Source: Bacteroidota bacterium (lineage in GTDB: Bacteria; Bacteroidota; Ignavibacteria; Palsa-1295). Taken from it: a DNA stretch of 64,000 bases. Below are positions 40,839-60,611 of the stretch, in pieces; position 1 is the stretch's first letter, and each line of letters opens with the position of its first letter. The position numbers were made by a program, and so were the translations under genes. The stretch is from positions 967,233-1,031,232 of the forward strand of contig JAFDZW010000005.1 in NCBI GenBank assembly GCA_018266755.1, read 5' to 3'. The notes below the pieces were generated by a model. The model was not told where the DNA came from and did not search any database. It saw only the letters and a program-made list of their open reading frames with translations.

Positions 40839-43442
40839 ATGAAGGGTCACGCAATCTACAGATCCATCCGAGCATCTTCACGAGTCGTATGCTTGATGCT
40901 CTTATTCTTGACGGCTTGTTCTACTGAACCGGAGCTCAATCCCGTTCCACTCCCGGGTCTCGAACTTGGTGACTCAGTTCGTTTGGGCACGGCTGAGATC
41001 GGGCCTGGCGGCGGAACACTTGCCGATGATCTCGGTATTGGTCCAACGGTAACGGTACCTGCAAGTGCGTTTACAACGAGTCGGACTTGCACGCTTAGCC
41101 AAGCCTTGATCAAATCACAAACCTTTGGGGAGAACATCTACCCGGAAACGCCGCTGTATCGTCTCGATATCGGTACTGATTATCCCGCACGCAATATTGT
41201 GGTTCGCATCGCAGTGAAGATGAAGTCCGACCGATTCTATATGCCGTTCTATTTTGATGCGGTAACGCATCAGTTGGACGCGATTCCCATCTCGACCATC
41301 GACAATCAAAGCATCACGTTCGTCATCCGACACTCCGGTTCGATCTTCGTCAGTTCAATCGCTCGTACAGCACTGAAGGGAAAGATCACATCTGCTTTTG
41401 ATGTGGCACACGATGCATGGAACATTCCGAATGTGGGCACTTCTGCCTTCCCCAATGGGCTTGCCAGCGGCCTTTCGCTCGGCGCGCTCTGGTATTATTG
41501 TAGCAAGTGGATAACCACCGGAACATCCCTTGGGAGTGCATTCCAGGAACCGACGTACTCGAACGATACCCTTTGGATGGCGCACCCACGGAGTTTTCGC
41601 GCAGTGAACGCGATTGAATCGGCGTGTGCTTGGACGACAACGGCTACCAACCTGATCGAACATCTGACTGGCGGTGACAACACGCTTACTCGAAATGAGT
41701 TAGCCTATGCCTTACTTGCCACTCACAAACCACAGGCACTGTGCCTTACCAATCGTCTAATCACGGCGAGGGTCCCGATCGTCGTTACGGGCCTGAACGA
41801 GAATCTCGCCACCGTATACGACCCCTGCTATCCTGGTGCAACGGATCGCTCTATCGACGTGTCCGCAAAAGCAACGCAGGCTTATAGCACATCGTACACC
41901 GTTTCAAACTTAATACAGTCAGACGAGCACGAATTTCCCTTTATTAGTTATATCGGTGGCTATGCGATCCTGGATTATGCTACAATCGCAGCAGGATATT
42001 CAGCATCCGTCACCGGTGTTCCGCAAGACCTCTTTTCGGGCGTGCGGGCAGATCATGGTGTGATACGAACGGGAGACACCCTCCAGTGTATTGACCCCGC
42101 CATCCGGTTGGACTTCTCGGGCCGAACGAAGACGAGCATCTCGATTTATCTCAATGGCGCATTCCGGTCCTACTCGACAGGCGATGTAATCCCTATCAAG
42201 CGCGGAGAAAATGTGGTTGGGATTTATATGGATTCTGCGTCGCCATACGTGAACAAACGTACATGGGTTGGTTGGCAATGGCTGCACGCATCATTTGAAC
42301 CGTTGCTTATTACGATGAAGCCGACAAATCCGGTCTCTCACACCCGGGAGTACTTTGGAATTGTTTCTCCCTTGTACCAACAATCCGGAGTCACGTTCGA
42401 GTGGAATTTTGGCGATGGGACCACTGAGCAGCGCGCATACCCGAACGACACGATCTCACATGTGTACGACCACGAAGGAAGCTACCCTCTCACGATACAC
42501 ATCAGACCGAGCGCCGGCACGGTTCCGCAGGACTCCTTCTCACAAACGATAATTGTCAGTGCACCCGCTGTAGCCATCATACCATTGGATTCGACGTTGC
42601 CGTTCGTCGGAACGCCACAGGCGTTCGTCGTACAGGTATCTCCGAAACCCGAACAGCGGTTCAGGATTCGCTGGACGGTGGTGGGAGTCGGCGCAAACCA
42701 AGTGTTAGCGGATACAGCGTGGTGGGTTCATACATTTGCGAGCGCAGGCATGTACACGTTGCGAGCGGATCTACTCGATAGCAAAGACATCGTGTTTGCC
42801 TCTACAACGCGCACCATCCAAATTTCTCCGGCATTAAGCCCGCCAACAATCGCCGAACTTCAATCCAAGAGGAATCTCCTGGTCCGATTTACCGGCGATA
42901 TTCAGTTCGACGGCACCGTACAGTGGTACACGACATTTGTCTACGGAACGGGCAGTAGTCGTGACTCGGCAGCCAATCGGCTACAGTGGGACCAACCGGG
43001 GACGACATGCAGTCTGAAGTGGTCGACCTCTTGGAGTTCACACGTCGTTACCGATTCGATCTTCAACTTCTACCATGACGAATCCGACAGCCGATCCCTA
43101 TCGATTAGCATCCACTTCGCGACCGACTATTCTACCGTCTCGAATTTCGCATGTGCGTCATCTCATGCGTGGAGTGAATACTCCAACAGTGCCATGACCG
43201 AGAACTACAATACGAATTCGGATGAGAATGCCTTAGAGGGCAACTCCATCTCGTATCATGGTCGTAATAACGATACAATTGTCTACCGGCGCAGTGGCCC
43301 AATGGTAGAGCAACTCTTGTCAAAGATCGAGTATAAGGCATCTCTATACTACAAGCATGGGGCAAGCGGCCACGCCGACTATGTGAAAACGAATTGGTCT
43401 AACAGCGCCAAACCGCCGATTGTTGATATTCTCTTCTATTGA
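40839..43442 (+). CDS. large lipoprotein with a PKD domain
   Basis: Lipobox 'LFLTACS'. 'TFEWNFGDGTTEQRAYPNDTISHVYDHEGSYPLTIHI' is a PKD domain. Confidence 0.55.
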   Translation: MKGHAIYRSIRASSRVVCLMLLFLTACSTEPELNPVPLPGLELGDSVRLGTAEIGPGGGTLADDLGIGPTVTVPASAFTTSRTCTLSQALIKSQTFGENIYPETPLYRLDIGTDYPARNIVVRIAVKMKSDRFYMPFYFDAVTHQLDAIPISTIDNQSITFVIRHSGSIFVSSIARTALKGKITSAFDVAHDAWNIPNVGTSAFPNGLASGLSLGALWYYCSKWITTGTSLGSAFQEPTYSNDTLWMAHPRSFRAVNAIESACAWTTTATNLIEHLTGGDNTLTRNELAYALLATHKPQALCLTNRLITARVPIVVTGLNENLATVYDPCYPGATDRSIDVSAKATQAYSTSYTVSNLIQSDEHEFPFISYIGGYAILDYATIAAGYSASVTGVPQDLFSGVRADHGVIRTGDTLQCIDPAIRLDFSGRTKTSISIYLNGAFRSYSTGDVIPIKRGENVVGIYMDSASPYVNKRTWVGWQWLHASFEPLLITMKPTNPVSHTREYFGIVSPLYQQSGVTFEWNFGDGTTEQRAYPNDTISHVYDHEGSYPLTIHIRPSAGTVPQDSFSQTIIVSAPAVAIIPLDSTLPFVGTPQAFVVQVSPKPEQRFRIRWTVVGVGANQVLADTAWWVHTFASAGMYTLRADLLDSKDIVFASTTRTIQISPALSPPTIAELQSKRNLLVRFTGDIQFDGTVQWYTTFVYGTGSSRDSAANRLQWDQPGTTCSLKWSTSWSSHVVTDSIFNFYHDESDSRSLSISIHFATDYSTVSNFACASSHAWSEYSNSAMTENYNTNSDENALEGNSISYHGRNNDTIVYRRSGPMVEQLLSKIEYKASLYYKHGASGHADYVKTNWSNSAKPPIVDILFY

Positions 43443-43537: not shown

Positions 43538-44203
43538 TCAATAGAACGTCGGCCAGAGGGTGATCTTCAAGTCCGTCCCGTTCGAGAGGGTGACGACGAT
43601 CTGTACTAACCCGAATTTGTGATTGGTGATGTATTTGATCTTCGTCACGCCGTTGAGATCGTTCACCGGCGTTTCCTCGGTCGTGTTGGTCTTGATGAGC
43701 AGGAAGCCATAGCTAAAATCGTCGGTGGTCGATTTTTGCGTCACGGTGCGGGTGACGGTCGTACCTGACGATGTGGTGAACGTGTACTTATCGCCCACCG
43801 AACAGTTGTACTTGATGATAGTGAACGGCTTCGACCAGTCGGAATCCGCCAACCGGTAATCCTGAATCCCTTCCGAGGTCATGCGCACATGGACTTCTGT
43901 ATTCAAGTTGCCTGCCGTGTCGAGCCTGCTGGCCGGAAGGATCGAACGCAACGCGGGGTACGCCGACAGATCGGCCCAGACACGGACCGTCACAAAGCCG
44001 TTCTGATTCTTCGTGATATACATCGTATCGCGCAGCGCTACGTACGAACTTCCGAGATAGACAGTTGGTGAAAAGTCATTGCCAACGGTATTGAGCGGAA
44101 TGTTCGTATCGCCGCCGAGGTCGTTCGGCCCTTCGGTCGAGCTTTGGCTGCATGCCACGAGGGTCATGGCTGCAAGCATGAGGAGCAAGGTTCGGATCTT
44201 CAT
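43538..44203 (-). CDS. lipoprotein, hypothetical
   Basis: MKIRTLLLMLAAMTLVACS lipobox, start trimmed from ORF 43538..44221. Confidence 0.5.
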   Translation of the reverse strand: MKIRTLLLMLAAMTLVACSQSSTEGPNDLGGDTNIPLNTVGNDFSPTVYLGSSYVALRDTMYITKNQNGFVTVRVWADLSAYPALRSILPASRLDTAGNLNTEVHVRMTSEGIQDYRLADSDWSKPFTIIKYNCSVGDKYTFTTSSGTTVTRTVTQKSTTDDFSYGFLLIKTNTTEETPVNDLNGVTKIKYITNHKFGLVQIVVTLSNGTDLKITLWPTFY

Positions 44204-44409
44204 ATATCCTCCGTAAGACATTTGTTTACGCCTGCGAAGCTTTTGTTACGGCCACCGGTACGCTCTTCTTCGTGGCAGTCGCCGGAAGTGCGCTGATAAT
44301 CAACCACTTCCGATGTTCAATCGGCCCCATTGGGCCTAACTACTCGCTATTCTTGCAATTAGAATGCCAAACAGAGATGCGGCGTTGACGTATCTTTGTC
44401 CTTGGCAGC

Positions 44410-46242
44410 ATGGCCGATATTTTCATCTCATACTCACGCAACGATTCGGAACAGGCCCTTGCCTTGGTCGATCGATTGCGCGCACATGGAATGACCGTCT
44501 GGATCGACCAGCACGGACTCGAAGCCGCGACGTCGTGGAGCAAGGAGATCGCGAACGCGCTGCAACAGTGCGATGTGATGCTCCTGCTGCTCTCCTCGAC
44601 GGCAGTGAGTTCGGTGAATGTCGCAAAAGAACTCTCTGCCGCATCCCAGCTCCATAAACGCATCGTCCCTGTCCAGCTCGAGCGTGTCGAACTGCAAGGC
44701 GAATTCCTCTACCATCTATCGGGGCTGCAGCGCGCGAAATACGACGACTTCGATTCGATCCTGCGGGCGGTGGCCAAAACAGATCAGGAAGTCTCACCCA
44801 ATACAACGAACTCGACCGAGCAAGCCCCGCCTCGTGCCCGAAAGACACGGCTTCGGGCTATCGTTGCTGCTTCGATCATTCTGGTGCTCGGCGCCGTAGG
44901 CTACTTCGCGTTCCGCCCGAGTTCATCCGGCAGTACGGCGAGCACGGTCAAGACGCTGTTGGTTCTGCCGTTCGAGAGTCTGAGCGCCGACAAAGAGAAC
45001 GAGTACTTCGCCGATGGCATGACGGCCACGCTAATCGATATGCTTGTCCCCGTGACCGACCTGCAGGTGGCCGACCGCAGCACGTCCATGGAATTCAAAT
45101 CGTCGAAGCGGGACGTCAAAGAAATCTCAAAACTGGTCGGATGCCGCTATATCGTCAACGGCACCGTGCAGCGTGAGGCCGACCGCATTTTGATCAATGC
45201 CCAAATGTCCGATGCCGAAACGGGATCGGTGCTCTTCAGCAAGTCCTTCTTTGGCTCATCACGCGATCTGTTCCAGTTGCAGCAACAGATCGCGCAAAAC
45301 ATTGTCGTAGAACTCCAACTGTCGCTTTCTACCGATTCGGTGTATGTGCCGCTGGGCGGGAAGCCCGCCAGTCCGGAAGCCTGGGACCTGTGCATGAGAG
45401 CTGACTACGAAGAGAGCCACAACCGCATCGATTCCTCGATCGCATTGTACGTACGTGCTACACAGTTTTCCCCATACTACGCACATCCGTATCTCCAGGC
45501 CGCGCGTGAATATGGCAACAAGTACATGGGCGACACCACCGCCACGCGGTCATTGGTGCTGGCAGACTCGTTTCTGGCGATCGGACGCAAACTTGATACC
45601 GCCCAACTATATTCGCATTTTGTTGGCAGTTGGATCGCAACGGTTCATCATGATTACGACCGAGCGATCTCCGAAGCGACCGCGTATCTGAAGAAGCAGC
45701 CCAGGCGCTCAGGCGGCTATTATCTGTTGGCTCTGGCATACGCTACTTCAAAACAATACGGCCTTGCTGCCGACAATTTCCTCGAGTCACTGAAGCGGGA
45801 TCCGACTGCGCCGCAAGACCGGTTCATGGTACTCTACTGTCTGTGGTTTGCGCATGATACCGTGCGATTGCATCAACAAGCGGCAGCGTCTATCCCGATC
45901 TTCGAAGCATGGCTCAAGTGGCACCCGGACGACAAATCCGTCAGCAACAATAGCATCCCGCTGGCATTGGTATGGTCCGGCCGAGGCGATGAAGCCTGCA
46001 AGCGGATGGAAGATCTGCTCAGGACCCCGAACGTCGACTCGCAGTACGTCCTGAATACCGCAGCGATCAGCGCCCTCAGTGGTAAGCTCGACCGAGCGAT
46101 GGAGATCATGCGGGGCAAGATCGCCCGCTCCGGCGTGCAGAGCGTCGACTTCGAACGCCCCTTCTTCGATAATCTCCGCAACCTCCCGGAATTTCAGTCA
46201 TGGGTAAAGCAGAAGGAAGCACTACCGAAGAAGCATGGCTGA
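44410..46242 (+). CDS. TIR-domain protein, paralog A: TIR – TM helix – TolB-N-terminal-like domain – TPR region
   Basis: 'MADIFISYSRNDSEQALALVDRLRAHGMTVWIDQHGLEAATSWSKEIANALQQCDVMLLLLSSTAVSSVNVAKEL' is a TIR_2-like domain. It is the only paralog with a hydrophobic segment 'LRAIVAASIILVLGAVGYFAF'. 'LLVLPFESLSADKENEYFADG...RYIVNGTVQ' is a TolB_N-like domain. Confidence 0.8.
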   Translation: MADIFISYSRNDSEQALALVDRLRAHGMTVWIDQHGLEAATSWSKEIANALQQCDVMLLLLSSTAVSSVNVAKELSAASQLHKRIVPVQLERVELQGEFLYHLSGLQRAKYDDFDSILRAVAKTDQEVSPNTTNSTEQAPPRARKTRLRAIVAASIILVLGAVGYFAFRPSSSGSTASTVKTLLVLPFESLSADKENEYFADGMTATLIDMLVPVTDLQVADRSTSMEFKSSKRDVKEISKLVGCRYIVNGTVQREADRILINAQMSDAETGSVLFSKSFFGSSRDLFQLQQQIAQNIVVELQLSLSTDSVYVPLGGKPASPEAWDLCMRADYEESHNRIDSSIALYVRATQFSPYYAHPYLQAAREYGNKYMGDTTATRSLVLADSFLAIGRKLDTAQLYSHFVGSWIATVHHDYDRAISEATAYLKKQPRRSGGYYLLALAYATSKQYGLAADNFLESLKRDPTAPQDRFMVLYCLWFAHDTVRLHQQAAASIPIFEAWLKWHPDDKSVSNNSIPLALVWSGRGDEACKRMEDLLRTPNVDSQYVLNTAAISALSGKLDRAMEIMRGKIARSGVQSVDFERPFFDNLRNLPEFQSWVKQKEALPKKHG

Positions 46243-47965
46243 TATTTTCATCTCGTACTCCCGCAACGACTCCGAGCAGGCTCTTGCCTTAGCCGAGCAA
46301 CTGCGCGCGAACGGATTGGACGTCTGGATCGACCAGCATGGCATCGAAGGGGCAACGAGTTGGAGCAAGGAGATCGCTAATGCGCTACAGGCCTGTCACA
46401 CCATGCTGCTGTTGCTGTCGCCCACCGCTGTTGCATCGAAGAATGTCGCGAAGGAACTCTCGGTCGCAACACAACTAAATAAGCATATTGTCCCGGTTCA
46501 GGTCGTTCGAACGACGCTTGAAGGCGAGTTCCTCTACCATCTCTCTGCGCTGCAACGCGTCAAGATAGCAGACGTAGATGCAATTCTCCGTGCGATCGCC
46601 GGCACTGCGCAGGATCGACCGGTGCGTCACGCACCTAAACCGATCGATGAACGGAAGTCGCTGATGATCCTGCCGTTCAAGGATCTCTCTCCGACAGCCG
46701 ACAACGGCTGGTTCGCCGATGGGATGGTCAGCGAACTCATCGACTCCCTTTCGCATATCAAGTCATTGCGGTTGGTGGACAAACAGACGACGAACGAGTA
46801 CAAGACCTATCAGGGCCACCTCGCCGACTATGCCCGCGAAATGGGCATCCGATTCTTCGTACAAGGCGACGTCCGGAAGTTCGGCGACCAGATCAAGATC
46901 TCGTGCACCTTGCTCGACATCGATACTGCCGATCACTTATGGCAGATCTCCCATAAGGGGACGATGTCCGACATCTTCGACATGCAGGAAGAGCTTGCGA
47001 GAAAAGTGGTCGATGGTCTGAAGCTGCATCTGCTCGCATCGGAAGAGAAGAAGCTTTCAAGCCGCGGCACCTCGAATGCCGAAGCGTATGAGATGTACTT
47101 GAAGGCCGAGGAATTCTATGACAAAGACACGAAAGTCTCAGTAGAATACGCCATGAAGGCGATCGAACGAAGCCTGGAGTTGGACCCAGATTTCCCGCAA
47201 GCGATGCTGCGGCGTGCGATCATTCTTGTTCGTTACCAACACGGATTTGGGGGTAGTGCGGAAATGCTCGATGAAGCCGAAGCCCTATTTGAAAGGGCAA
47301 AGAAAAAGCTCTCCCCTTCCGACGATTGGCGTGTTCTCGCCGGTCCGGGTATTCTGGCAATGGCGCGCGGCAATTTTGCATTGGCCGAATCGATCGCTCG
47401 TGAGAATGTCTCGATCGATCCGAACGATTATTACAGGCACAATGCACTGGCGTATTGTCTGTTCCTTCAAGGTCGGTACGAAGAGGTGCTCGTCGAACAT
47501 GAAGCATGTCTTGCGATCGTTCCTGAATCCTACAAATGTGCGCGCCAGATCGTCATGATGGCATGGAATATGGATCGGCCCGACCTCAAAGCTGATTATG
47601 CCCGGCGATTCATTCATCTGTTCCGGCGGAGAATGCAGCTCATGCCGAATGACGATGAAGCCTCCGTTCTCTATGGATTGTTACTGTTCTACCTCGGCCG
47701 CAGAGACGATGCACTCAGTCATCTCGACACGATCAGTGACGATCATATCACCGACGAATTGTCTTTTCGAATCCTCGCATGCCTTGCGGCACTTCTTGGC
47801 AGACCGGAGCGAGCAATCCGGTCGATGCAGTTGAGTGCTGAGATGGATCTGAACGAATGGCACCTGGCCTTGCTTAATAAGTCGGAGCTCGATTCGCTCA
47901 GGGACAGAGAAGACTTCCGTCGATTGGCAGAAGCTTGGAAAGCACGGTTGACGTCCAATGGCTGA
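46235..47965 (+). CDS. TIR-domain protein, paralog B (TIR – TolB_N-like – TPR), soluble
   Basis: 'MADIFISYSRNDSEQALALAEQLRANGLDVWIDQHGIEG', 'MILPFKDLSPTADNGWFADG'. The start ATG overlaps the upstream stop (ATGGCTGA). Confidence 0.8.
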   Translation: MADIFISYSRNDSEQALALAEQLRANGLDVWIDQHGIEGATSWSKEIANALQACHTMLLLLSPTAVASKNVAKELSVATQLNKHIVPVQVVRTTLEGEFLYHLSALQRVKIADVDAILRAIAGTAQDRPVRHAPKPIDERKSLMILPFKDLSPTADNGWFADGMVSELIDSLSHIKSLRLVDKQTTNEYKTYQGHLADYAREMGIRFFVQGDVRKFGDQIKISCTLLDIDTADHLWQISHKGTMSDIFDMQEELARKVVDGLKLHLLASEEKKLSSRGTSNAEAYEMYLKAEEFYDKDTKVSVEYAMKAIERSLELDPDFPQAMLRRAIILVRYQHGFGGSAEMLDEAEALFERAKKKLSPSDDWRVLAGPGILAMARGNFALAESIARENVSIDPNDYYRHNALAYCLFLQGRYEEVLVEHEACLAIVPESYKCARQIVMMAWNMDRPDLKADYARRFIHLFRRRMQLMPNDDEASVLYGLLLFYLGRRDDALSHLDTISDDHITDELSFRILACLAALLGRPERAIRSMQLSAEMDLNEWHLALLNKSELDSLRDREDFRRLAEAWKARLTSNG

Positions 47966-49703
47966 TATTTTTATCTCATACTCGCGCCACGATTCGGAGC
48001 AGGCTCTTGGTTTGGTCGCTCACTTGCGCGCGCAGGGTGTGGATGTCTGGATCGACCAGCACGGCATCGAAGGGGCGGCGAGTTGGAGCAAGGAGATCGC
48101 CAACGCACTGGAATCCTGCCATACGATGCTCCTGCTGCTTTCGCCGACGGCTGTCACATCGGAGAACGTTGCGAAGGAATTGGCGGCCGCGACGCAGCTC
48201 AAGAAACGCATTGTCCCGGTACAGGTCATCCGCACTGCCCTCAGCGGTGAATTTCTCTATCATCTCTCCGGCCTGCAGCGCGTGAAGATCGCGGACGTCG
48301 ACGGCATTCTGCGTGCGATCAATACGAGTAAGTCGTCGGCCATCCCGATTCAGCCGAAGGCTGTACAACCTGTTGACGAGCGCAAGAGCCTCATGATTCT
48401 GCCGTTCAAGGATCTCTCCCCGACCGCCGATAACGGCTGGTTCGCCGACGGCATCGTCAGCGAACTCATCGACTCGCTCTCGCGCGTGAAGTCACTGCGA
48501 TTGGTAGATAAACAGACAACGAGCGAGTACAAGACCTATCAAGGTCATTTAGCTGATTATGCTCGCGAGATGCGCATTCGCTACTTCCTGCAGGGCGACG
48601 TTCGGAAGTTCGGCGATCAGATCAAGATCTCTTGCACGTTGCTCGATATCGACACCGCCGATCACTTATGGCAGATCTCCCACAAAGGGACGATGTCCGA
48701 TATCTTCGACATGCAGGAAGAACTTGCGAGAAAAGTGGTCGATGGGCTGAAGGTGCACCTGCTCGCATCGGAAGAGAAGAAGCTTGCGAACCGGGGTACG
48801 TCGAATGCCGAAGCGTATGAGATGTACTTGAAATCCGCAGAGTTCTTCGGCAAGCACACCAAGGTCGGCACGGAGCATGCGCTCGCCTCGATCAGGCGTG
48901 CGCTGGAGCTCGACCCCAACTTTCCACAGGCCATGCTTCGCTGTGCGATCATTCTGATCACATTGCATCAACATTTTGGATGGCCGGCCAACGTTCTGGA
49001 TGAGGCAGACCGTCTGCTTGAGGCTGCGCGGCTGGTGCTTTCCCCTACCGATGACTGGCGGGTGTTGGGGACACACGCGTTGCGATTGTGGGTATCCGGC
49101 GATCCTGATGCAGCCGAAGCATTGATGCGTGAGAACCTTCGCATCGATCCGGCGGACACGGATCGCCTCAACCAGCTCGGAGTCTTCCACTCGGTGCAGC
49201 ATCGGTTTTCAGAAGCGTTGGTCGAATTCGAAGCAATATTCGCCCTCACCCCAGATTCCTATCGCGCCGCCAGAACGTTGATCGGGACAGCATGGGCACT
49301 TCGAGATCGCGACCGCAAAGTGCAGTACGCACACCAGTTTTTCGATCTCGTGGTTGCGCGCATGAGCACCATGCCGGATGATGACGATGCTCGTATCGTC
49401 TATGGGCTGTTGCTGGTCTATCAAGGCAGGATCGACGAAGCACGGCAACAGCTCCATGCATTTCCGGACGATCACATCGTCATCGAAGAATCCTACCGCA
49501 ACCTTGCCGGGCTCGCCGCGATGGTCGGTGAAGGCGACCGCGCCATTCGTCTCTTGCAGACGTTCACCGAGCGGTTCGGGACAACGCTCACTGCTGAGCA
49601 TCTGCTGTGGTTTAGTGATCAGGAGTTCGAACCCATCAGCGATCGAGAAGAGTTTATTCGCCTCGAAGAAGAGTGGACACGCCGCGTACATTCTAATGGC
49701 TGA
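47958..49703 (+). CDS. TIR-domain protein, paralog C. Very similar to B across the TIR and TolB_N-like domains and divergent in the C-terminal TPR region
   Basis: 'MADIFISYSRHDSEQALGLVAHLRAQGVDVWIDQHGIEG'. Same ATGGCTGA junction at both ends. Confidence 0.8.
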   Translation: MADIFISYSRHDSEQALGLVAHLRAQGVDVWIDQHGIEGAASWSKEIANALESCHTMLLLLSPTAVTSENVAKELAAATQLKKRIVPVQVIRTALSGEFLYHLSGLQRVKIADVDGILRAINTSKSSAIPIQPKAVQPVDERKSLMILPFKDLSPTADNGWFADGIVSELIDSLSRVKSLRLVDKQTTSEYKTYQGHLADYAREMRIRYFLQGDVRKFGDQIKISCTLLDIDTADHLWQISHKGTMSDIFDMQEELARKVVDGLKVHLLASEEKKLANRGTSNAEAYEMYLKSAEFFGKHTKVGTEHALASIRRALELDPNFPQAMLRCAIILITLHQHFGWPANVLDEADRLLEAARLVLSPTDDWRVLGTHALRLWVSGDPDAAEALMRENLRIDPADTDRLNQLGVFHSVQHRFSEALVEFEAIFALTPDSYRAARTLIGTAWALRDRDRKVQYAHQFFDLVVARMSTMPDDDDARIVYGLLLVYQGRIDEARQQLHAFPDDHIVIEESYRNLAGLAAMVGEGDRAIRLLQTFTERFGTTLTAEHLLWFSDQEFEPISDREEFIRLEEEWTRRVHSNG

Positions 49704-51438
49704 TATTTTCATCTCATACTCACGCAAAGACCTCGACCAAGCGCTTTCGCTTGTCGAACGACTCAAGGCGGCCGGTTTTGATGTCTGGATCGACCGGCAC
49801 GGGATCGAGGGGGCGAATAGTTGGAGCAAGGAGATCGCCAATGCACTCGAATCGGCCTCGATCTTCTTGTTGCTACTCTCCGAATCTTCCGTCGCATCGC
49901 CGAATGTCTCGAAAGAACTCGGCGTCGCGACCCTGCTACAAAAACGGATCGTCCCGCTGCGACTGGACCGTGTCGAACTCCGAGGTGAGTTCTTGTATCA
50001 CTTGGCGAATCTGCAGTACGTTCGGTTCGAGGAGTTCGATGCGCTCGTGAGCGTTTTGAGTGGCAAGCCGACTCCGCGCGGAGTGACACCCGCAAAGAGC
50101 TCGGACGACCGCAAGAGCCTGATGATCCTGCCCTTCGACGACCTCTCGCCTACCGCGGACAACGGCTGGTTCGCCGATGGCATTGTCAGCGAAATGATCA
50201 GCGCTCTTTCGAACGTCAAATCATTGGTCGTCACTGACCCGCAGACGACCAAGGACTTCAAACGCTATAAAGGCGCGCTTCCTGCCTATGCGAAGGAGAT
50301 GTCGATCCGATATTTCGTGCATGGCGATGTGAGGAAGTTCGGGGACAGCATCAAGATCACCGCCCGTCTTCTGGATATTGCGACTGGAGATTACCTGTGG
50401 CAAGAGTCCATGAAAGGCACGATGAGCGACATCTTCGAGATCCAGGAGCATGTAGCGAAAAAGGTGCTTGATGGACTGGCGGCGATCCTTTCGACCGAAG
50501 AGACATCGACACTTTCCACGCACGGAACCAAGAACACCGACGCCTATGAACTATTCTTGAAGGCCTGCGAGTACTATGCACGAAACACGCTGGAAGGATT
50601 TCGACTTACTGCTCAGCTCTGCGACGAAGCGATCCGCCTTGAGCCCGAATATGTTCAGCCGATCAATTACAAGGCGCTCGCACTACTAGCGATCTATCGG
50701 CATTACGAACGAGACCCTCGGCTGTTGGGCGAAGCGGAGCGACTCTGTCAGGAGGCACTGCGGCTCAACGCTGGTTTTCGCCAAGCATACTTCCCTTTGT
50801 CGCAGATACAGTTGTATCGTGGCAAGATCGCTCAAGCAGAGGAGACCGCAATCGAATACATCAGGAAGGCGCCTGATGACTTTCACAGCCATTTCACGCT
50901 CGCTTTCGTCTACGGTCAAAGCAACAACTACTCCAGAGCGATCCCGCTCATGGAAGAAGCGATTCGTCTGCGGCCCGGCGATCTTGTCTTGTTGTGGAAC
51001 CTTGTGGTGGTGTGCGACAGTGCAGGCGCGAAAGAGAAATGCGCTCAGTGGGCTGAAGAAGCACTTCCGTACTTCGAACGCTATACTAAGCTGCATCCCG
51101 ATCATGAAGACAAACGTCTCATTCATGCGGCGCTTCTGCAGATGAGCGGAAGAACGGATGCCGCCCATGCTGCCGCGACAAGGCTCAAGGCCTCTCGAGA
51201 TGCGGTGACTCTCTACAATACTGCCTGTCTCTTTGGGAAGGTCGATGACAAGAACGAAGCACTCGCGACACTCAAAATGTCTATCGAGACAGGGATGAAG
51301 GACGTCGATGCACTAAAGCACTTTCTTGCCGATACTGATCAGGGGGTCGCGTCACTCTCGGGGACCCCGCAATTCGAAGAGGTGCTACGTTTGATTGAAT
51401 CGCTAGAAGGCGAAACCGATCCAAGAACGCATGGCTGA
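49696..51438 (+). CDS. TIR-domain protein, paralog D (TIR – TolB_N-like – TPR)
   Basis: 'MADIFISYSRKDLDQALSLVERLKAAGFDVWIDRHGIEG'. Start trimmed from ORF 49378..51438 to the Met overlapping the stop of C. Confidence 0.8.
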   Translation: MADIFISYSRKDLDQALSLVERLKAAGFDVWIDRHGIEGANSWSKEIANALESASIFLLLLSESSVASPNVSKELGVATLLQKRIVPLRLDRVELRGEFLYHLANLQYVRFEEFDALVSVLSGKPTPRGVTPAKSSDDRKSLMILPFDDLSPTADNGWFADGIVSEMISALSNVKSLVVTDPQTTKDFKRYKGALPAYAKEMSIRYFVHGDVRKFGDSIKITARLLDIATGDYLWQESMKGTMSDIFEIQEHVAKKVLDGLAAILSTEETSTLSTHGTKNTDAYELFLKACEYYARNTLEGFRLTAQLCDEAIRLEPEYVQPINYKALALLAIYRHYERDPRLLGEAERLCQEALRLNAGFRQAYFPLSQIQLYRGKIAQAEETAIEYIRKAPDDFHSHFTLAFVYGQSNNYSRAIPLMEEAIRLRPGDLVLLWNLVVVCDSAGAKEKCAQWAEEALPYFERYTKLHPDHEDKRLIHAALLQMSGRTDAAHAAATRLKASRDAVTLYNTACLFGKVDDKNEALATLKMSIETGMKDVDALKHFLADTDQGVASLSGTPQFEEVLRLIESLEGETDPRTHG

Positions 51439-51550
51439 TATGTTCATCTCGTACTCACACAAAGACCTTGAGCAGGAAATGTCGCTTGTCGAGCGATTCA
51501 TTTCACCAGACGCCCTGATTTTCTCATTCCATCTATCATTATGTCACTGA
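51431..51550 (+). pseudogene. 5' remnant of a further TIR paralog (MADMFISYSHKDLEQEMSLVERF..., 39 codons then stop)
   Basis: Starts at the same ATGGCTGA junction on the stop of paralog D. Keeps ~22 aa of the TIR N-terminus, then diverges and terminates where the BNR gene begins. Confidence 0.6.
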
Positions 51551-53367
51551 AACACCTTGCCCTGATAGTATTGATCTCTTCTGCCCGAATTGCGACGGCG
51601 CAGGAGGTTGCACCGCAGACTCCGGAATCCGACCGTGAACTCAGTCGTGCTCTGAAAGTCGCGAAGCTCGGCGATCGACTCTATCGGGAATGCGACGTAT
51701 TTCGGCGCGTGATCGATCATCAACTATCTCAACAGCCAGCATCGCAAGTATCGAGCGTTCTATCGACCGAACCACTTCAGTCGCTCGGCGACACATCACT
51801 GGATATTACGCATTCCTCTTCAGACGAGTCTGAGACAACCGTCGCGATCAGCCGTACGAATCCAAACATGATCGTTGTCGGGTTCAATGACGCGGCACAA
51901 ATAGCGAATGGGATAGGCATGACCGCCTGCGTTTCCACCGATGCCGGAAATACGTGGTCACGACAGCATTTGCCAAAAGTGAATTTCCACGGAGCAAACG
52001 CGTGGTGCGATCCTATTCTCACGTGCGATGATTCCGGCATGTTCTACTATGCCTTCCTCATCATCACACCCAACATGTCGCTGAGTGATATTATGGTCGG
52101 GCGCAGCAAAGACGGTCGGAATTGGGTGCTGGGGTCACCGGTTGTCGGTGACACGATCGCACCAACCAAACTGCAGGATAAACCCACGATCGCTGTCGAT
52201 CGCGATCCGAACAGCCCATACCACGGGAGGCTCTATATTGCATGGTCGGAATATCCGTCACTCGCCGACACATTGTGGGATGGGATCAATTATGTGGCAT
52301 ATAGCGATGATCATGGCGTCAGTTGGTCAAAGCCGTTAGAGTATAGCACCGCATTCGGACACTTTGCAACACTGCGTATCGGCAAAGGCGGAACGGTGTT
52401 CATTTCTTCGAATAACTTTCGCGACGAGACCGTTGCCTCGTTCGCCGTGGAAGTCTCGCATGACGGCGCTAAGACGTTCTCTGAGTATCCGATCGCGATG
52501 CGACAAAAAGCATATCCCGTCGATCATAATGTCTATATGTATGCCATGTTAAAGGGGTCGAAGGGTTTCCGAATCGACCCCTACATTAGCTTCGATCTCG
52601 ATCCCGAAACAAATGATCTGTTTGCCGTGTACGGATCGTACGACACGATCAAGAAAGCCGCCCGCGAATTCATCGTTCGTTCGACCGACGAAGGCGTGTC
52701 GTGGTCATCCCCCATTCAGGTAGGCGATCCAACGCTCTTAGGACTCGACCATTGTATGCCGTGGGTGAGCTTCGACCCCTCTACAAAAAAGGCATACGTA
52801 ACAATGTATAGTTCTGAAGAGGATACAGCCAATGTGCTTATGCGGAGAGTTCGATACTCCTTCGATACACCAACGAACGCCGAGCCGCTCGGGACCCGAC
52901 TTTTCAACCCACTCCTCGCTTCAGTCGCGACCGGGGGTCGTTGGGCTAATATGGGCGACTATACGTATAGCGATGCCTTCGGTGGCACGTTCGTCGATGT
53001 CTGGGCCGAGAACCGTCCACCCAGCTACAATGACGGCGATGTCTTCGCATACGTTTCTTCACCGGCGACACACGCCGGTGTGATCCGTCAACTCAATGCA
53101 CCAACGATCGCGATCAGTGACCTCAGCCCGAATCCGGTGCATGGAGATCGGATCAGCTTCACACTGACCGGCGACCGTTCGAGGGAAGTACTCATTCATG
53201 TGCAAGACGTTCTGGGGCACGAAGTCTTGAGTGCCACTGCAAAGCTGGATGCAGGTACTCTCACAGATGTAACACTCGATATCGGAACGCTCGCCGCCGG
53301 GAGCTATCTCATAGTTATCGATGGCAATGACGAATCTGTCTGCCGGCGTTTTGTCATTGTTCGATAA
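51541..53367 (+). CDS. T9SS cargo: BNR/Asp-box repeat sialidase-like glycosyl hydrolase, sitting inside the TIR array
   Basis: Signal peptide. Asp-boxes 'STDAGNTWS', 'SDDHGVSWS', 'STDEGVSWS'. C-terminal 'LSPNPVHGD...GSYLIVIDGNDESVCRRFVIVR' T9SS CTD. Confidence 0.7.
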   Translation: MSLKHLALIVLISSARIATAQEVAPQTPESDRELSRALKVAKLGDRLYRECDVFRRVIDHQLSQQPASQVSSVLSTEPLQSLGDTSLDITHSSSDESETTVAISRTNPNMIVVGFNDAAQIANGIGMTACVSTDAGNTWSRQHLPKVNFHGANAWCDPILTCDDSGMFYYAFLIITPNMSLSDIMVGRSKDGRNWVLGSPVVGDTIAPTKLQDKPTIAVDRDPNSPYHGRLYIAWSEYPSLADTLWDGINYVAYSDDHGVSWSKPLEYSTAFGHFATLRIGKGGTVFISSNNFRDETVASFAVEVSHDGAKTFSEYPIAMRQKAYPVDHNVYMYAMLKGSKGFRIDPYISFDLDPETNDLFAVYGSYDTIKKAAREFIVRSTDEGVSWSSPIQVGDPTLLGLDHCMPWVSFDPSTKKAYVTMYSSEEDTANVLMRRVRYSFDTPTNAEPLGTRLFNPLLASVATGGRWANMGDYTYSDAFGGTFVDVWAENRPPSYNDGDVFAYVSSPATHAGVIRQLNAPTIAISDLSPNPVHGDRISFTLTGDRSREVLIHVQDVLGHEVLSATAKLDAGTLTDVTLDIGTLAAGSYLIVIDGNDESVCRRFVIVR

Positions 53368-53382
53368 TTTCCCGAACGACCC

Positions 53383-55116
53383 GTGGCTGATATCTTCATC
53401 TCATACTCACGCAAAGACGCCGAAGCGGCGCTCGCATTAGCGGAGCGTCTGCGCAGTGACGGCGCGAGCGTGTGGATGGATACAGCCGCATTGGCGGCAG
53501 CCGAGACCTGGAGCGCGGAGATCGTCACTGCGATCGAAGGGTGTACGTTCTTCATCGTCCTGATCTCACCGAATGCTGTGGCGAGCAGAAACGTGACCAA
53601 AGAGGTGTCGCTCGCTTCGGAGTCGAAGAAGACGATCATCCCGATCGAGCTCGTGCGGTGCGAACTCAATCCCGCAATGAAGTATGCGCTCGCCGGCCTG
53701 CAGAAGGTGAAGCTCCACGATGAAGTAACACTGCACCGCAGCCTTTCCAAACTGGGACTCGCTCCGGGAGTTCATACTGCACCGTCGGCTCCCCAAGCAG
53801 TAGCATCGCCATCTCGTGCGGACTCTGGCCCCACACGCCTTGCCGTGTTTCCGTTCGAAGATCAATCGCCCACACGCGACCACGAGTGGTTCAGCGATGG
53901 GCTCACCGATGAACTGATCTCGATGCTCAACAAGGTCGATGCGCTGCTCGTACTCGATCGCAACTCGACGCGCGCATATCGCGATGCGAAGATGACGACC
54001 AAGCAGATCGCTCGTGAACTGCAGGTACGATATGTGATCGTCGGTGCCGTCCGCAAAGCGGGCGAGAAGATCAGGGTTCAGGCATCGCTCATCGATCCCG
54101 AGACCGGAAAGGTGCTGTGGGATGAGAAGTTCAACGGCACCATGGACGATATCTTCGAGATCCAGGAGAAGACGGCCCGAGATATTGTCGAAGGACTGAA
54201 GATCACGCTCACCCCGGCAGAACGCAGCTCACTCGATCAGAAGATGACGGACTCGCCCGAGGCATACGAACTGCTCATGCGAGCGAGCCGCAAACTCGAT
54301 GAGGAAATGGATCATGCCGGAGGAACGCGCTTGGCAGAACGCGCCTTGGAGATTGATCCGAACTGTGCCGCAGCCCTTTATCTGATCTCGGTCGCGACGT
54401 CGAACCAATATCGAATCGGTAACCGATCCGATGCGTCACTGCTCGAACGCGAACGCGGACTCGTCAAGCAACTGATGACACTTGCTCCTGAGACGCACTA
54501 TTGTTATATCGCCCGAGCAAATTATTACCTGAACATCGACGAGACGGAGCTCGCCGTGGAAATGGCGGAGCGAGCCGTCAGCGTTAGTCCGAAACGCCCC
54601 CGATCTCACGGTGTGCTTGGGTTTATTTATTCGCGTCTCAATCGTCCGGCCGATGCGGTCAGAGAATTTCGTCGTGCGATCGAGCTCGATCCGAACTCCG
54701 GTACTGATCATGTCAGCCTCTTGACCGTCCTCTTTGTCAGTGGAGCGCCGCTCGAACAATTGCGCGCCCAGTACCCGAACGTCAAACGACACCTTGACGC
54801 ACGGATAGCTGAGTACCCCGACTCGCTCAGGATTCGGACGGAACTGCTGAATGCTGCCATCCAAGCGCAAATCCCGGACGATGCCGTAGCAGTTGCTGAA
54901 GCCATCCTCGCCAGAGGAGATGTGGACGCTGATACCGAATACTGTTGCGCCGAGGCCTTCGTACTCGCCGGCGATCTCGAGCGAGGCCGCACACATCTTC
55001 GCTCCGCGATCGATCGAGGCCAGGACACCTTCACCATTTGGGATGAATCCGGTTTCCTCCCGCTCAACGGCACGCCGGAATACGACTTCCTGGTTGCACA
55101 TATTGCAAGAGACTAA
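53383..55116 (+). CDS. TIR-domain protein, paralog F (TIR – TolB_N-like – TPR). GTG start
   Basis: '(V)ADIFISYSRKDAEAALALAERLRSDGASVWMDTAALAAAETW', 'LAVFPFEDQSPTRDHEWFSDGLTDELI'. Confidence 0.75.
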   Translation: MADIFISYSRKDAEAALALAERLRSDGASVWMDTAALAAAETWSAEIVTAIEGCTFFIVLISPNAVASRNVTKEVSLASESKKTIIPIELVRCELNPAMKYALAGLQKVKLHDEVTLHRSLSKLGLAPGVHTAPSAPQAVASPSRADSGPTRLAVFPFEDQSPTRDHEWFSDGLTDELISMLNKVDALLVLDRNSTRAYRDAKMTTKQIARELQVRYVIVGAVRKAGEKIRVQASLIDPETGKVLWDEKFNGTMDDIFEIQEKTARDIVEGLKITLTPAERSSLDQKMTDSPEAYELLMRASRKLDEEMDHAGGTRLAERALEIDPNCAAALYLISVATSNQYRIGNRSDASLLERERGLVKQLMTLAPETHYCYIARANYYLNIDETELAVEMAERAVSVSPKRPRSHGVLGFIYSRLNRPADAVREFRRAIELDPNSGTDHVSLLTVLFVSGAPLEQLRAQYPNVKRHLDARIAEYPDSLRIRTELLNAAIQAQIPDDAVAVAEAILARGDVDADTEYCCAEAFVLAGDLERGRTHLRSAIDRGQDTFTIWDESGFLPLNGTPEYDFLVAHIARD

Positions 55117-55117
55117 C

Positions 55118-56839
55118 GTGGCAGATATTTTCATTTCATACTCACGCAAAGATTCCGAGCAGGCACTCGCACTTGCCGATCGGCTACGCTCGAGCGGAGC
55201 GGATGTCTGGATGGACACCGCATCGCTGACGGCGGCAGAAACATGGAGCGCGGAGATAGTGTCGGCGATCCGCAGTTGTCACACGTTCATCGTGATGCTC
55301 TCGCCGAATTCGGTCACTTCGAAGAATGTGGTGAAAGAAGTCGGGCTGGCGTCGGAGCGCGACAAACGGATCATCCCGATCGTGCTCGAGCCATGCGTTC
55401 TCAGCGATGCAATGCAGTACGCACTCGCGGGCATTCATCACGTAAAGATCAACGACCGGGACGCATTGGACCGAGCATTAAGCAAGATCGGCCTCGTCGC
55501 AACCACCCCCGTCGCTGAAGCACCGAGCGACCCGGTATCTGCATTCCCCGACAACCTCATTCGCATCGCCGTGCTGCCGTTCGATGACCAATCCCCTGCC
55601 CATGACCACGAATGGTTCAGCGATGGCCTGACCGACGAACTGATCTTGACATTGAATAAGCTCGATGCACTCTTTGTGCTTGACCGGAAATCTTCGCAAC
55701 TCTACAAGGATGCTCGCATCTCCGTGAAGCAGATCGCGGCCGAGCTCAACGTCCGCTACATCATTAGCGGCGCCGTGCGCAAAGCCGGACAGAACATTCG
55801 CGTGCAGGTGTCACTCATAGAGGCGACATCGGGCGTAACGCTCTGGGATGAAAAATTCTCGGGGACGATGGATGACATCTTTGAGATCCAGGAAAGAACC
55901 GCGTTCGACATTGCCGAAGGCTTGAAGCTGAAGCTCACGCCGGCTGAAATGCTCCTGCTCGAAGAAAAGACAACAACATCTTCTGAAGCGTATCGTCTGC
56001 TTCTGCAAGCCCGGGAAAAGAACAACAGCTTCGCCGACAGTGCCGGCGCCATTGAGGATCTCAAGCATGCCATCAGGATCGATCCCGGATTCCTTCCCGC
56101 ATACGCGATACTCTCTGTCGCGTATGCAAACGAATATCGCAGCTCGAACCGTACCAACGCAACCCTCCTCGATCTCTCGAAACGAGCAATGGACGAGATC
56201 AGGCAAATCGATCCGAACTCGCCCTTCTACTATGGTCCATGCGCCAATTACTATCTGAATATCGGCGAGCGCGAACTCGCATTGGACATGGCGAACAAGC
56301 TCGTTGAGCTTCGGCCAAAACAATTTGTGTCGTACGCGATCCTCGGATTCATGCAGGATTCGCTCGGCAACTACCGCGAGGCGATGCGCGCGTTCCAACG
56401 GGCCATCGAGCTCGATCCGGCAACGGCCACGAACTATGTGAAGCTGGCTACCGCGGCGTTCCGACTGGGCGAAATGGATGCGATCGAATGGTGTTGGGAG
56501 AAAGGGCGGCCGTTGTACGAGCGCTTGATCGCAGCACACCCGGAACGGATGTGGGCCAAACTGGAGTACTTGTTTCTCTCCCTCTTTGCTGGGTATGTTG
56601 ACATTGCTGTAGAAATGGCAGAATCGATCGAACGCTTACCTGACCTCCCTCTCGAGACCCATACGCAGCTTGCCGCAGTCTGGATGGCCAATGGCCAGAT
56701 CGAGCGCGGGACCAAAGCGTTACAGTATGCGATCGACGGAGGGTATGTGGCGTTCGAAGGCATGGACCGACGTCTCTATCGCGCGATCGAAGGCACACCG
56801 TTGTACCAGTTCGTCCTCGATCACATTGTACGACCCTGA
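55118..56839 (+). CDS. TIR-domain protein, paralog G (TIR – TolB_N-like – TPR). GTG start. Closest to F
   Basis: '(V)ADIFISYSRKDSEQALALADRLRSSGADVWMDTASLTAAETW', 'IAVLPFDDQSPAHDHEWFSDGLTDELI'. Start inferred inside ORF 54893..56839. Confidence 0.75.
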   Translation: MADIFISYSRKDSEQALALADRLRSSGADVWMDTASLTAAETWSAEIVSAIRSCHTFIVMLSPNSVTSKNVVKEVGLASERDKRIIPIVLEPCVLSDAMQYALAGIHHVKINDRDALDRALSKIGLVATTPVAEAPSDPVSAFPDNLIRIAVLPFDDQSPAHDHEWFSDGLTDELILTLNKLDALFVLDRKSSQLYKDARISVKQIAAELNVRYIISGAVRKAGQNIRVQVSLIEATSGVTLWDEKFSGTMDDIFEIQERTAFDIAEGLKLKLTPAEMLLLEEKTTTSSEAYRLLLQAREKNNSFADSAGAIEDLKHAIRIDPGFLPAYAILSVAYANEYRSSNRTNATLLDLSKRAMDEIRQIDPNSPFYYGPCANYYLNIGERELALDMANKLVELRPKQFVSYAILGFMQDSLGNYREAMRAFQRAIELDPATATNYVKLATAAFRLGEMDAIEWCWEKGRPLYERLIAAHPERMWAKLEYLFLSLFAGYVDIAVEMAESIERLPDLPLETHTQLAAVWMANGQIERGTKALQYAIDGGYVAFEGMDRRLYRAIEGTPLYQFVLDHIVRP

Positions 56840-58168: not shown

Positions 58169-58371
58169 GAATCAACCACCCCAACCCCGCCTTGAAAAGG
58201 CGGGGCCTCTTGTTATCTTTGCTTACGCAGGTTCATGATTTGCCTACAAGGAGTATTCTGTGCTGCTTGAAGCTAAATGCGATTGCACTTGCGCACTAAA
58301 ATCGTAATTGGCGTAAGCAAAGTAAATTAGATAGCCCCGCCTTTTCAAGGCGGGGTTGGGGTGGTTGATTC
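58169..58371. mobile_element. MITE-like ~203-bp palindromic element, copy 1 (38-bp terminal inverted repeats with an internal 'ccccgcc ttgaaaa ggcgggg' hairpin)
   Basis: Left TIR 58169..58206 'gaatcaaccaccccaaccccgccttgaaaaggcggggc' and its reverse complement at 58334..58371. Inner 12-bp IR 'ctttgcttacgc/gcgtaagcaaag'. A second copy lies 600 bp away. Confidence 0.6.
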
Positions 58372-58383
58372 GTATTTTCGCAC

Positions 58384-58794
58384 ATGCTCCGCCGATTCAA
58401 CAATAACCCGATCAACAAAGACCGCCGTCGCGAGTTACGCTCGAATCCTACGCGCGCGGAATCAGAATTGTGGCACGGACTTCGCAATCATCGCTCCGGG
58501 TACAAATTCCGCCGCCAGCAAGGGCTCGGGCCATTCATCGTGGATTTCTACTGCCCCGCATTTCATCTCGCGGTAGAAGTCGATGGCGCAACGCATGATT
58601 CGCTCGAGCAACAAGAGTACGATTCGCGAAGGAGCGAATACCTGCGTGCAAATGGAATCGACGCCATCCGCTTCACAGACGGCGAAGTGCTGTGGAGCGT
58701 AGATATCTGCGTAGCGAAGATCGCCGAACGGATCGAAGAGATCAAACGAGGACGTGGTGGCACATCGGAATCAACCACCCCAACCCCGCCTTGA
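58384..58794 (+). CDS. DUF559 endonuclease-domain protein (Vsr/PD-(D/E)xK-like)
   Basis: 'LRSNPTRAESELWHGLRNHRSGYKFRRQQGLGPFIVDFYCPAFHLAVEVDGATH' is the DUF559 signature. The last ~9 codons (STTPTPP*) are encoded by the left end of MITE copy 2. Confidence 0.75.
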   Translation: MLRRFNNNPINKDRRRELRSNPTRAESELWHGLRNHRSGYKFRRQQGLGPFIVDFYCPAFHLAVEVDGATHDSLEQQEYDSRRSEYLRANGIDAIRFTDGEVLWSVDICVAKIAERIEEIKRGRGGTSESTTPTPP

Positions 58795-58967
58795 AAAGGC
58801 GGGGCGTCTTATCATCTTCGCTTACGCCGGTTGAAGATATCCGTACATGGAATAGTTATTGCGGCGTACGCTGAACCCAGTTGCACTTGAACACCACATT
58901 CAAAATTGGCGTAAGCAAAGTACATTAGATAGCCCCGCCTTTTCAAGGCGGGGTTGGGGCGGTTGAC
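58768..58967. mobile_element. MITE-like ~200-bp palindromic element, copy 2
   Basis: Same 38-bp TIRs (58768..58805 and 58933..58967) and the same inner 'gcttacgc...attggcgtaagcaaagta.attagata' core as copy 1. Confidence 0.6.
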
Positions 58968-60598: not shown

Positions 60599-60611
60599 TG
60601 ATTACTAGCGA

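Follow-up and report, generated by a model that had tools for sequence, protein, structure and literature searches.

A tandem array of genes for TIR-headed sensor proteins lies at positions 44410-56839, on the + strand, of a 64-kb stretch of DNA (hereafter the window) from an uncultured Bacteroidota-group (Kapabacteria-like) bacterium. The array holds six intact genes, P1 to P6, and the stub of a seventh, and each intact gene encodes a TIR_2 domain, a TolB_N-like domain and a tetratricopeptide repeat (TPR) region, in this order. The N-terminal TIR appears catalytically equipped, and is predicted to cleave NAD+. One-component-type sensing, either physiological or of stress, is proposed here as the role of the array family, with a confidence that falls somewhat short of even, and with the same reserve the proteins are taken to be signal-transduction sensors rather than a dedicated mobile anti-phage system. 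This reading is ranked first because housekeeping genes, in part with conserved synteny, surround the related loci and because the paralogs are old and constrained, and also because the sensors are conserved within clades and are akin to those of bona fide signalling proteins. A preliminary description had presented the genes as an immune array undergoing diversification within a defence island, a view that was dropped because of the comparison with related genomes.

All six long array open reading frames (ORFs) start with MADIFISYSR, and the Pfam family TIR_2 (PF13676) matches the proteins with 77.5-85.5 bits in 6/6 cases (82 bits in P1) against a cut-off of 28. The TIR domains, at first described as almost invariant, come in two types, P1-P4 and P5-P6, which are ~45-50% identical to each other. 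Several Pfam TPR families match in all six proteins, including TPR_16 in P1, and the 'TPR end-of-group' cap (TPR_END_plus) exceeds its cut-off in P2 (34.7 vs 32 bits) and P4. Profile searches thus bore out the TIR_2 and TPR parts of the architecture first described but not its TolB_N part, as the middle domain gave no Pfam TolB_N (PF04052) match at E 0.01 or better; FlgO matches this domain weakly, with 24.4 bits in P1 (cut-off 22.6) and 16.9 bits, below the cut-off, in P5. Because Pfam and PADLOC matched only the TIR and generic TPRs, the fold of the middle domain was taken from structure prediction. P4 was modelled with AlphaFold2 from an alignment of 58 family sequences; the model has a predicted local distance difference test score of 87 and comprises a TIR domain (aa 1-122), a disordered linker, an alpha/beta domain (aa 140-260) and then 17 helices. 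The alpha/beta domain is structurally similar to the TolB_N-like fold of the TolB N-terminal domain, LpoB, FlgO, CsgG, PelC and the CadC N-subdomain, and the predicted sensor as a whole resembles that of CadC. On this model, the TolB_N-like domain and the first helices together are a CadC-type sensor domain. Sub-threshold NCBIfam matches in the sensor region are to CadC, HilA/EilA and the cyclase family TIGR04510. The CadC family NF007540 reaches 18-38 bits against a cut-off of 400, in the sensor region only, so the array proteins are not members of it, and the best sensor-to-CadC sequence match (P5 aa 154-397, E 7e-10) is likewise below the family threshold. Both the fold and these matches agree with the earlier recognition of a module shared with CadC-like regulators and cyclases.

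P1 alone among the six has a hydrophobic segment, read as a transmembrane (TM) helix, at aa 146-170 (nt 44845-44919), between TIR and sensor; because positive charges precede this helix, the TIR is predicted to be cytoplasmic and the sensor to lie outside. The array proteins gave neither a Walker A motif nor a P-loop/NTPase Pfam match, as the preliminary description had stated. The central P-loop NTPase with Walker A/B motifs that marks signal transduction ATPases with numerous domains (STAND), Avs and NLR proteins is therefore missing, and STAND/Avs membership was ruled out. In PADLOC v2, all significant matches are confined to the TIR (aa 2-114; models for SAVED-TIR, pAgo-TIR and ThsB) and no model spans the whole protein, in line with the earlier remark that no defence system of this architecture was known; the TIR-NLR model gives a 17-bit stray match in the TPR region of P3. 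The Pfam ThsB_TIR match is borderline (19.5-22 bits vs a cut-off of 21.2), and NCBIfam adds a sub-threshold match to ThcB4 of Thoeris III.

The TIR profile best matches the NADases SARM1/TIR-1, the bacterial TIR proteins 7uxr and 3h16, AbTir and Cat1. Glu74 (P4: 49915-49917), which stands for the catalytic glutamate of the alpha-C helix in NAD+-cleaving TIRs, is aligned with the Glu of the SARM1/TIR-1 'WVHKE' motif and with bacterial TIR structures; it is invariant in 58/58 aligned family members, and other residues of the active-site region are conserved as well. Four residues before it, Asn70 (P4 codon 49903-49905) is invariant in Kapabacterial TIRs including P1-P6. This is the position of W204 in AbTir, and the Trp is kept in proteobacterial proteins of the same architecture (L022, L037, L044 and L067; L-numbers denote related loci in other genomes or metagenome-assembled genomes (MAGs)). 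In AbTir, E208A abolishes activity, W204A lowers NADase activity, and an aromatic residue at the W204 position is needed for cyclic ADP-ribose (ADPR) products (Manik et al., preprint 10.1101/2022.05.07.491051). The aromatic residue, usually Trp, that ADPR-cyclising TIRs carry four residues before the catalytic Glu is replaced here by the invariant Asn70, and for this reason ADPR and nicotinamide, that is, NAD+ consumption, are predicted as a more likely outcome than a cyclic-ADPR signal. NAD+ consumption without a signal would also fit the absence of a receptor gene nearby.

The same sensor occurs far beyond the window and on other heads. A family scan with one genome per species yielded 577 related stretches, in which full-length TIR–sensor proteins belong to Kapabacteria/Ignavibacteriae MAGs, Sphingomonas, other alpha- and gammaproteobacteria and an Opitutaceae MAG; two tandem TIR–sensor copies (L022) come from the cultured Sphingomicrobium nitratireducens O-35. 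The sensor is also found behind Ser/Thr kinase (Pkinase) heads at L012, L029, L038, L048 and L069 and behind a nucleotide cyclase head (Guanylate_cyc) at L061, and rhizobial 'adenylate/guanylate cyclase' proteins with the module account for 550 plasmid records. With local hidden Markov models (HMMs), the middle domain of kinase-, cyclase- and HilA/EilA-type proteins is matched at E 1e-30 to 1e-45, which makes their sensor homologous to that of the array, while the output domain differs from the TIR. Kinase-headed sensor proteins form tandem paralog arrays of 3-5 genes, like the TIR array; because of this, arraying is a trait of the sensor module rather than evidence for TIR immunity, whereas the preliminary description had seen in it a hallmark of immune receptor families. 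In sensor proteins with an N-terminal part of 100-280 residues lacking a domain match, a TM helix is present in 45/60, and in TIR forms from related loci in 2/33 (L006_2708 and L010_10174), to which P1 is added. These three TM-bearing TIR proteins form one clade and so represent a conserved subfamily that is anchored in the membrane and has its sensor outside. In public databases, members are labelled 'TIR domain-containing protein', 'TolB-like protein/TadD' or, misleadingly, 'adenylate cyclase'; the P4 protein is identical to the NCBI entry 'MAG: TIR domain-containing protein [Bacteroidetes bacterium]'.

Several larger assemblies of the module were noted in passing. Five-gene tandem sensor arrays are present at L012 2700-13804, L029 3072-13967, L038 219-13079 and L043 399-11347, where representatives of the first three carry Ser/Thr kinase heads and L043 has heads of similar size, and Dokdonella (L040 2827-21066) has a seven-gene sensor array whose short N-terminal parts lack a Pfam match. 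Two single ORFs repeat the unit within one chain, TIR–mid–TPR–mid–TPR of 1077 aa at L006 6447-9677 and three mid+TPR units of 1473 aa at L057 1-4419, each being either a gene fusion or an effect of assembly or frameshift.

Identity among the window paralogs is 45-83% in the TIR, 32-94% in the middle domain and 16-50% in the TPR region, which agrees with the strong difference between copies first noted for the TPR part. For P2 and P3, the respective values are 83%, 94% and 50%, and their nucleotide profile is mosaic, with 0.8-0.94 identity over codons 136-285 and ~0.5 beyond. Every paralog pair is saturated at synonymous sites (dS 0.9 or more), and dN/dS is 0.04-0.55 across all domains, higher in the TPR region than in the TIR; on saturated pairs these ratios show constraint (<1) and cannot exclude episodic positive selection. 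Judged by these rates, the paralogs are old and under constraint, the TPR region being just less constrained. In a distance tree, they fall into at least four clades: P1 groups with L006_2708 and L010_10174, which like it bear a TM helix, P5/P6 with a pair of tandem genes of L009, and P4 with genes of L003, L001 and L083, all from other MAGs, while P2/P3 are a younger local pair. The nearest counterpart of P6, L009_3519, shares 69% of the TIR, 87% of the middle domain and 62% of the TPR region. In the P4-like clade, represented by 52 database homologues, mean pairwise identity is 0.63 in the TPR region, 0.64 in the TIR and 0.80 in the middle domain, and this within-clade conservation of the TPR region suggests stable, distinct specificities over an arms race. 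The family appears, from these groupings, to have been vertically inherited as clades across Kapabacteria-like MAGs. Recent amplification of diversifying receptors, the heart of the preliminary description, is at odds with the saturated dS, the low dN/dS, the old clades and the conserved TPR region of the P4 clade.

The histories of TIR heads and sensors are not the same. The TIRs of P1 and P4 are nearest to array neighbours (0.76 and 0.62), while their sensors are nearest to proteins in other genomes. At L001, two adjacent pairs have TIRs that are 97% identical and TPR regions that are 69% and 29% identical, and the TIRs of genes 3 and 4 are 84% identical at the nucleotide level. For 36 proteins of multi-copy loci, the best match lies within the same locus for 15/36 TIRs and 6/36 TPR regions. 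Because the histories of TIR and sensor are incongruent, TIR heads are seen, on this comparison, as homogenised or exchanged within arrays, either from a need to co-assemble or, as may also be, through gene conversion seeded in conserved 5' sequence.

The surroundings of the family were surveyed at 17 related loci, mostly from MAGs of a lineage that has been little studied, with PADLOC models from 2023, and the outcome is to be read as indicative only. Recurrent placement by known defence systems, as expected of a defence-island family, was not seen across these 17 loci, where this window is the only one with a recognised complete defence system nearby. M16 peptidase and LexA-like (S24 peptidase) genes lie divergently upstream of the arrays in L001, L083 and L084 (2079-2756, 8879-9556 and 6266-6592, respectively), and this is a conserved chromosomal site with change in copy number (6, 2 and 2 array copies). 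The window gene at 43538-44221 was considered as the same LexA-like neighbour and rejected for lack of similarity (E 1.9), and the window is therefore not at this syntenic site. Other arrays lie near prfA (L085) or near clpX and msrA (L002), and no known defence system is near the array in five annotated related loci. The 110 flanking ORFs of 12 further loci are mostly housekeeping genes (dcw cluster, penicillin-binding proteins, Mur ligases, MraW, GidA, QueA, NadA and Dxs); PADLOC matches among them are PDC-S01 (2), mad3 (2) and DzbB, subtilase, mad8 and mad2 (1 each). A search of viral contigs returned no relatives.

In the window, a complete IetAS system begins 2.7 kb downstream of the array, and the IetAS genes, a DUF559 gene and miniature inverted-repeat transposable element (MITE)-like repeats lie 1.3-6 kb downstream. 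Since GC drops to 0.48-0.52 around 58-62 kb, this patch suggests a separately acquired islet. The defence neighbourhood looks incidental. The defence island of the preliminary description is thus present as far as these genes go, but related loci lie mostly among housekeeping genes. That description had itself named a confinement of homologs to housekeeping contexts as a point against immunity; across the surveyed loci this is largely what was found, and the immune-array claim is weakened accordingly.

As for partners, a search for conserved partner genes gave none in the array, as had been noted before, and none in related arrays, and no SLOG, Macro, SIR2, SAVED or STING-type partner was found in the scanned window genes or in the five annotated related loci. 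Thoeris was ruled out, as no ThsA-like gene is present among the array or scanned neighbours to complete a ThsA/ThsB pair.

In the sensing model, each gene would encode a single-chain sensor-enzyme, in which a catalytically competent N-terminal TIR is controlled by a C-terminal CadC/HilA-type sensor made of the TolB_N-like alpha/beta subdomain and roughly nine pairs of TPR-like helices. Binding of a specific ligand to the sensor, be it a small molecule or a peptide/protein, would relieve autoinhibition or drive oligomerisation of the TIR heads; as the TIR active site would form only between associated TIRs, assembly would switch on NAD+ cleavage. In SARM1, a helical-repeat domain gates the TIR, which offers an analogy for ligand gating. 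The membrane-anchored P1 would read a periplasmic cue like CadC, and the soluble P2-P6 cytoplasmic cues. The array genes, which share one orientation and are probably transcribed together, would be a battery of old paralogs whose sensors differ in specificity, grown by tandem duplication, in which gene conversion or domain shuffling keeps neighbouring TIR heads alike. The TIR takes the slot held by Ser/Thr kinase or cyclase heads in relatives and by the DNA-binding domain in CadC/HilA. A wider version of this model is more doubtful, and is offered only as a possibility: that in Kapabacteria and some Proteobacteria the enzymatic TIR is an ordinary signalling output, which a CadC-type sensor can carry in place of a kinase, cyclase or DNA-binding head, that regulated NAD+ cleavage answers cues from the environment or from metabolism (in this array, five in the cytoplasm and one in the periplasm), and that TIR heads are kept alike for co-assembly.

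Several points weigh against a sensing role. To our knowledge, all enzymatic bacterial TIRs studied so far act in immunity or virulence, and a non-immune role has no precedent. The IetAS system and the DUF559 gene are within 6 kb of the array, and the context sample is small (17 loci) and was read with PADLOC models from 2023. Copy number varies among related genomes (6, 2, 2+2, 3 and 4-5) and divergence is greatest in the C-terminal repeats of every array, both of which also fit immune-receptor families. Moreover, by analogy with AbTir W204A, the Asn variant may be a weak or altered enzyme.

The strongest competing explanation is an innate immune receptor repertoire without an NTPase, in which TPR sensors would recognise different phage proteins or infection cues and trigger NAD+ depletion by the TIR, that is, abortive infection. 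The logic would be like that of DSR2 or Avs/NLR systems, minus the STAND module. This explanation is judged unlikely, yet several observations speak for it. The TIR has an intact catalytic Glu and is similar to that of immune NADases, with PADLOC models for SAVED-TIR, pAgo-TIR and ThsB matching aa 2-110 and the sub-threshold match to ThcB4; the paralogs form an array and differ most in the repeat region; copy number changes across related genomes, and TIR heads and sensors are shuffled; IetAS is close by in a low-GC patch; and simple NAD+ depletion needs no receptor partner, to which the Asn at the cyclisation position is suited. However, this explanation has to cope with the fact that in the 17-locus survey only the window has a recognised complete defence system nearby and the rest are in housekeeping and partly syntenic settings, and with ancient paralogs under purifying selection, in which the TPR region of the P4-like clade is as conserved as the TIR. 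The apparently vertical descent of clades common to Kapabacteria-like MAGs, the lack of relatives in viral contigs, a subfamily predicted to sense outside the cytoplasm, and the equally large arrays of kinase-headed versions of the sensor also speak against it.

It is improbable, although class III nucleotide cyclases fill the same place in the architecture as the TIR, that the TIRs are signal synthases that do the same job as cyclase heads, converting ligand binding into an NAD+-derived messenger for a receptor or effector whose gene lies elsewhere in the genome. Proteobacterial TIR–sensor proteins do keep the Trp needed for cyclic products, and co-expression of six NAD+-depleting toxins would put the cell at risk, whereas that of signal synthases would not. 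Against this stand the Asn at the cyclisation-determining position of the Kapabacterial members, including all six proteins of the array, and the missing SLOG, Macro, SIR2, SAVED or STING-type partner in the genes and loci scanned. That the TIRs are non-catalytic assembly or adaptor modules joining differently tuned sensors, nucleated for instance by membrane-anchored P1, is very improbable: it would explain the homogenised heads (the TIRs of P1 and P4; the L001 pairs with 97% in the TIR vs 29-69% in the TPR region) and the absence of the Trp that contacts substrate in AbTir, but the catalytic Glu is kept in 58/58 aligned members along with other active-site-region residues, and homogenisation could also arise by gene conversion from conserved 5' sequence, without functional meaning.

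Among known systems, the sensor fold is similar to that of Escherichia coli CadC, a ToxR-like one-component pH/cadaverine sensor (periplasmic domain 3LY7), but CadC has a winged-helix DNA-binding head whereas the array proteins have a TIR head and are soluble in 5/6 cases, and the helical part of the array proteins is longer, with about nine TPR pairs, and scores at most 38 bits against the cut-off of 400. In SARM1/TIR-1, the animal NAD+ hydrolase, the domain order is reversed, ARM repeats stand in place of the TolB_N-like domain and TPRs, and the Trp before the Glu is kept in SARM1; the array proteins are also without a SAM oligomerisation domain. DSR2 and the Avs/TIR-NLR proteins unite, as here, an NAD+-consuming head and a long repeat sensor in one polypeptide, and DSR2 is likewise without an NTPase. 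However, the head of DSR2 is SIR2 and not TIR, Avs/NLR proteins need the STAND NTPase that the array proteins lack, and the TIR–sensor family, unlike these defence proteins, has no defence-island association across the 17 loci. Thoeris ThsB and BcTir/Tpr have a bacterial TIR_2/ThsB-like TIR, as in the array, but these systems are multi-gene with a separate ThsA or BcTpr, whereas the array proteins fuse TIR and TPR through the TolB_N-like domain and have no conserved partner. BcTir/Tpr is a two-gene TIR/TPR system of Bacillus cereus reported to be anti-phage (preprint 10.1101/2023.05.26.542521).

No description of the TIR + TolB_N-like + TPR architecture was found in the literature searched, where the B. 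cereus two-gene system is the nearest, in agreement with the preliminary description. The family is large and uncharacterised, and either joins a TIR effector to a repeat sensor or gives a one-component sensor a new output. Animals, plants and bacteria share TIR domains as the enzymatic core of innate immunity, and here the domain sits on a sensor module that otherwise belongs to classical signalling proteins, such as CadC, HilA, kinases and cyclases. If NAD+ is cleaved on ligand binding, the proteins would provide a simple NTPase-free model of a repeat sensor gating a TIR, and would test whether bacterial TIR enzymology extends beyond immunity. Were the signalling reading true, a catalytic bacterial TIR would for the first time have a role outside immunity and virulence; as immune receptors, the proteins would instead constitute a new type of single-gene defence, with arrays of paralogs that mirror eukaryotic receptor clusters. 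The two tandem copies of cultured S. nitratireducens O-35 make the question testable.

The features of the window are listed in the table below. A 48-nt unit start (repeat family D4), which contains ATGGCTGATATTTTCATCTC, occurs seven times, at 44408, 46233, 47956, 49694, 51429, 53381 and 55116; six copies head the intact ORFs and that at 51429 heads the stub only. The count of six paralogs and one remnant in the preliminary description is therefore right, but the loci are not consecutive in the strict sense, as a BNR/sialidase-like gene separates the stub from P5. In tblastn, the stub matches the TIR starts of P1, P4, P5 and P6, best that of P4 (74% over 23 aa). At the P1/P2, P2/P3, P3/P4 and P4/stub junctions, the genes overlap by the same 8 nt (ATGGCTGA), with the stop codon within the next start, and this junction is found again in the six-gene array of another MAG (L001); such overlaps suggest translational coupling. 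The true start of P6 is the GTG at 55118, vs an upstream TTG at 54893 in the ORF list. A sigma-70 scan gave 18 promoter-like sites in the array vs 9.1 in shuffled sequence (sd 2.9), with a model ill-suited to Bacteroidota-type promoters, and terminator-like sites are at chance level (15 vs 14.4 expected).

Table. Coordinates of the array genes, the subdivisions of P4 and nearby features of the window
Feature	Coordinates	Strand	Description
P1	44410-46242	+	610 aa; TIR_2 – TM helix – TolB_N-like – TPR
P2	46235-47965	+	576 aa; TIR_2 – TolB_N-like – TPR, soluble
P3	47958-49703	+	581 aa; nearest paralog P2
P4	49696-51438	+	580 aa; TIR – TolB_N-like – TPR solenoid
P4, TIR	49696-50055	+	aa 1-120
P4, TolB_N-like domain	50110-50481	+	aa 139-262
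P4, TPR region	50482-51420	+	aa 263-575
Seventh-paralog stub	51431-51523	+	first 23-31 TIR codons (MADMFISYSHKDLEQEMSLVERF...), by tblastn
BNR/sialidase-like gene	51541-53367	+	608 aa; C-terminal sorting domain of the type IX secretion system (T9SS); not a family member
P5	53383-55116	+	577 aa; GTG start; second TIR type
P6	55118-56839	+	573 aa; GTG start 1 nt past the P5 stop
MITE-like elements (2)	58169-58371, 58768-58966		~200 bp; 38-nt perfect terminal inverted repeats GAATCAACCACCCCAACCCCGCCTTGAAAAGGCGGGGC
DUF559 endonuclease-like gene	58384-58794		
IetA/IetS pair, complete	59591-63026		IetA AAA ATPase, E 2e-76; IetS S8 subtilase, E 7e-45

Upstream of the array, the window contains T9SS cargo genes, a gene for a PKD protein and a cyclopropane-fatty-acid synthase gene; downstream, an NmrA-like gene is followed by the DUF559 gene between the two MITE-like elements. 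The protein of the BNR/sialidase-like gene has two Pfam matches, both sub-threshold, to BNR_2 (E 8e-6; 25.8 vs 31.4 bits) and Por_Secre_tail (E 2.5e-5; 24.9 vs 27), and no PADLOC match; the gene was ruled out as a component of the system, being absent from other arrays. Probable T9SS-secreted genes were also seen in or beside other TIR arrays, at L001 13700-16531, L002 933-6020 and L085 14039-16441, in addition to the BNR/sialidase-like gene, 36113-37759 and 40839-43442 in the window. Most of them have a Por_Secre_tail, in some cases weak, the 40839-43442 protein having matched PKD models only, and such genes beside the arrays may simply be common in this lineage.

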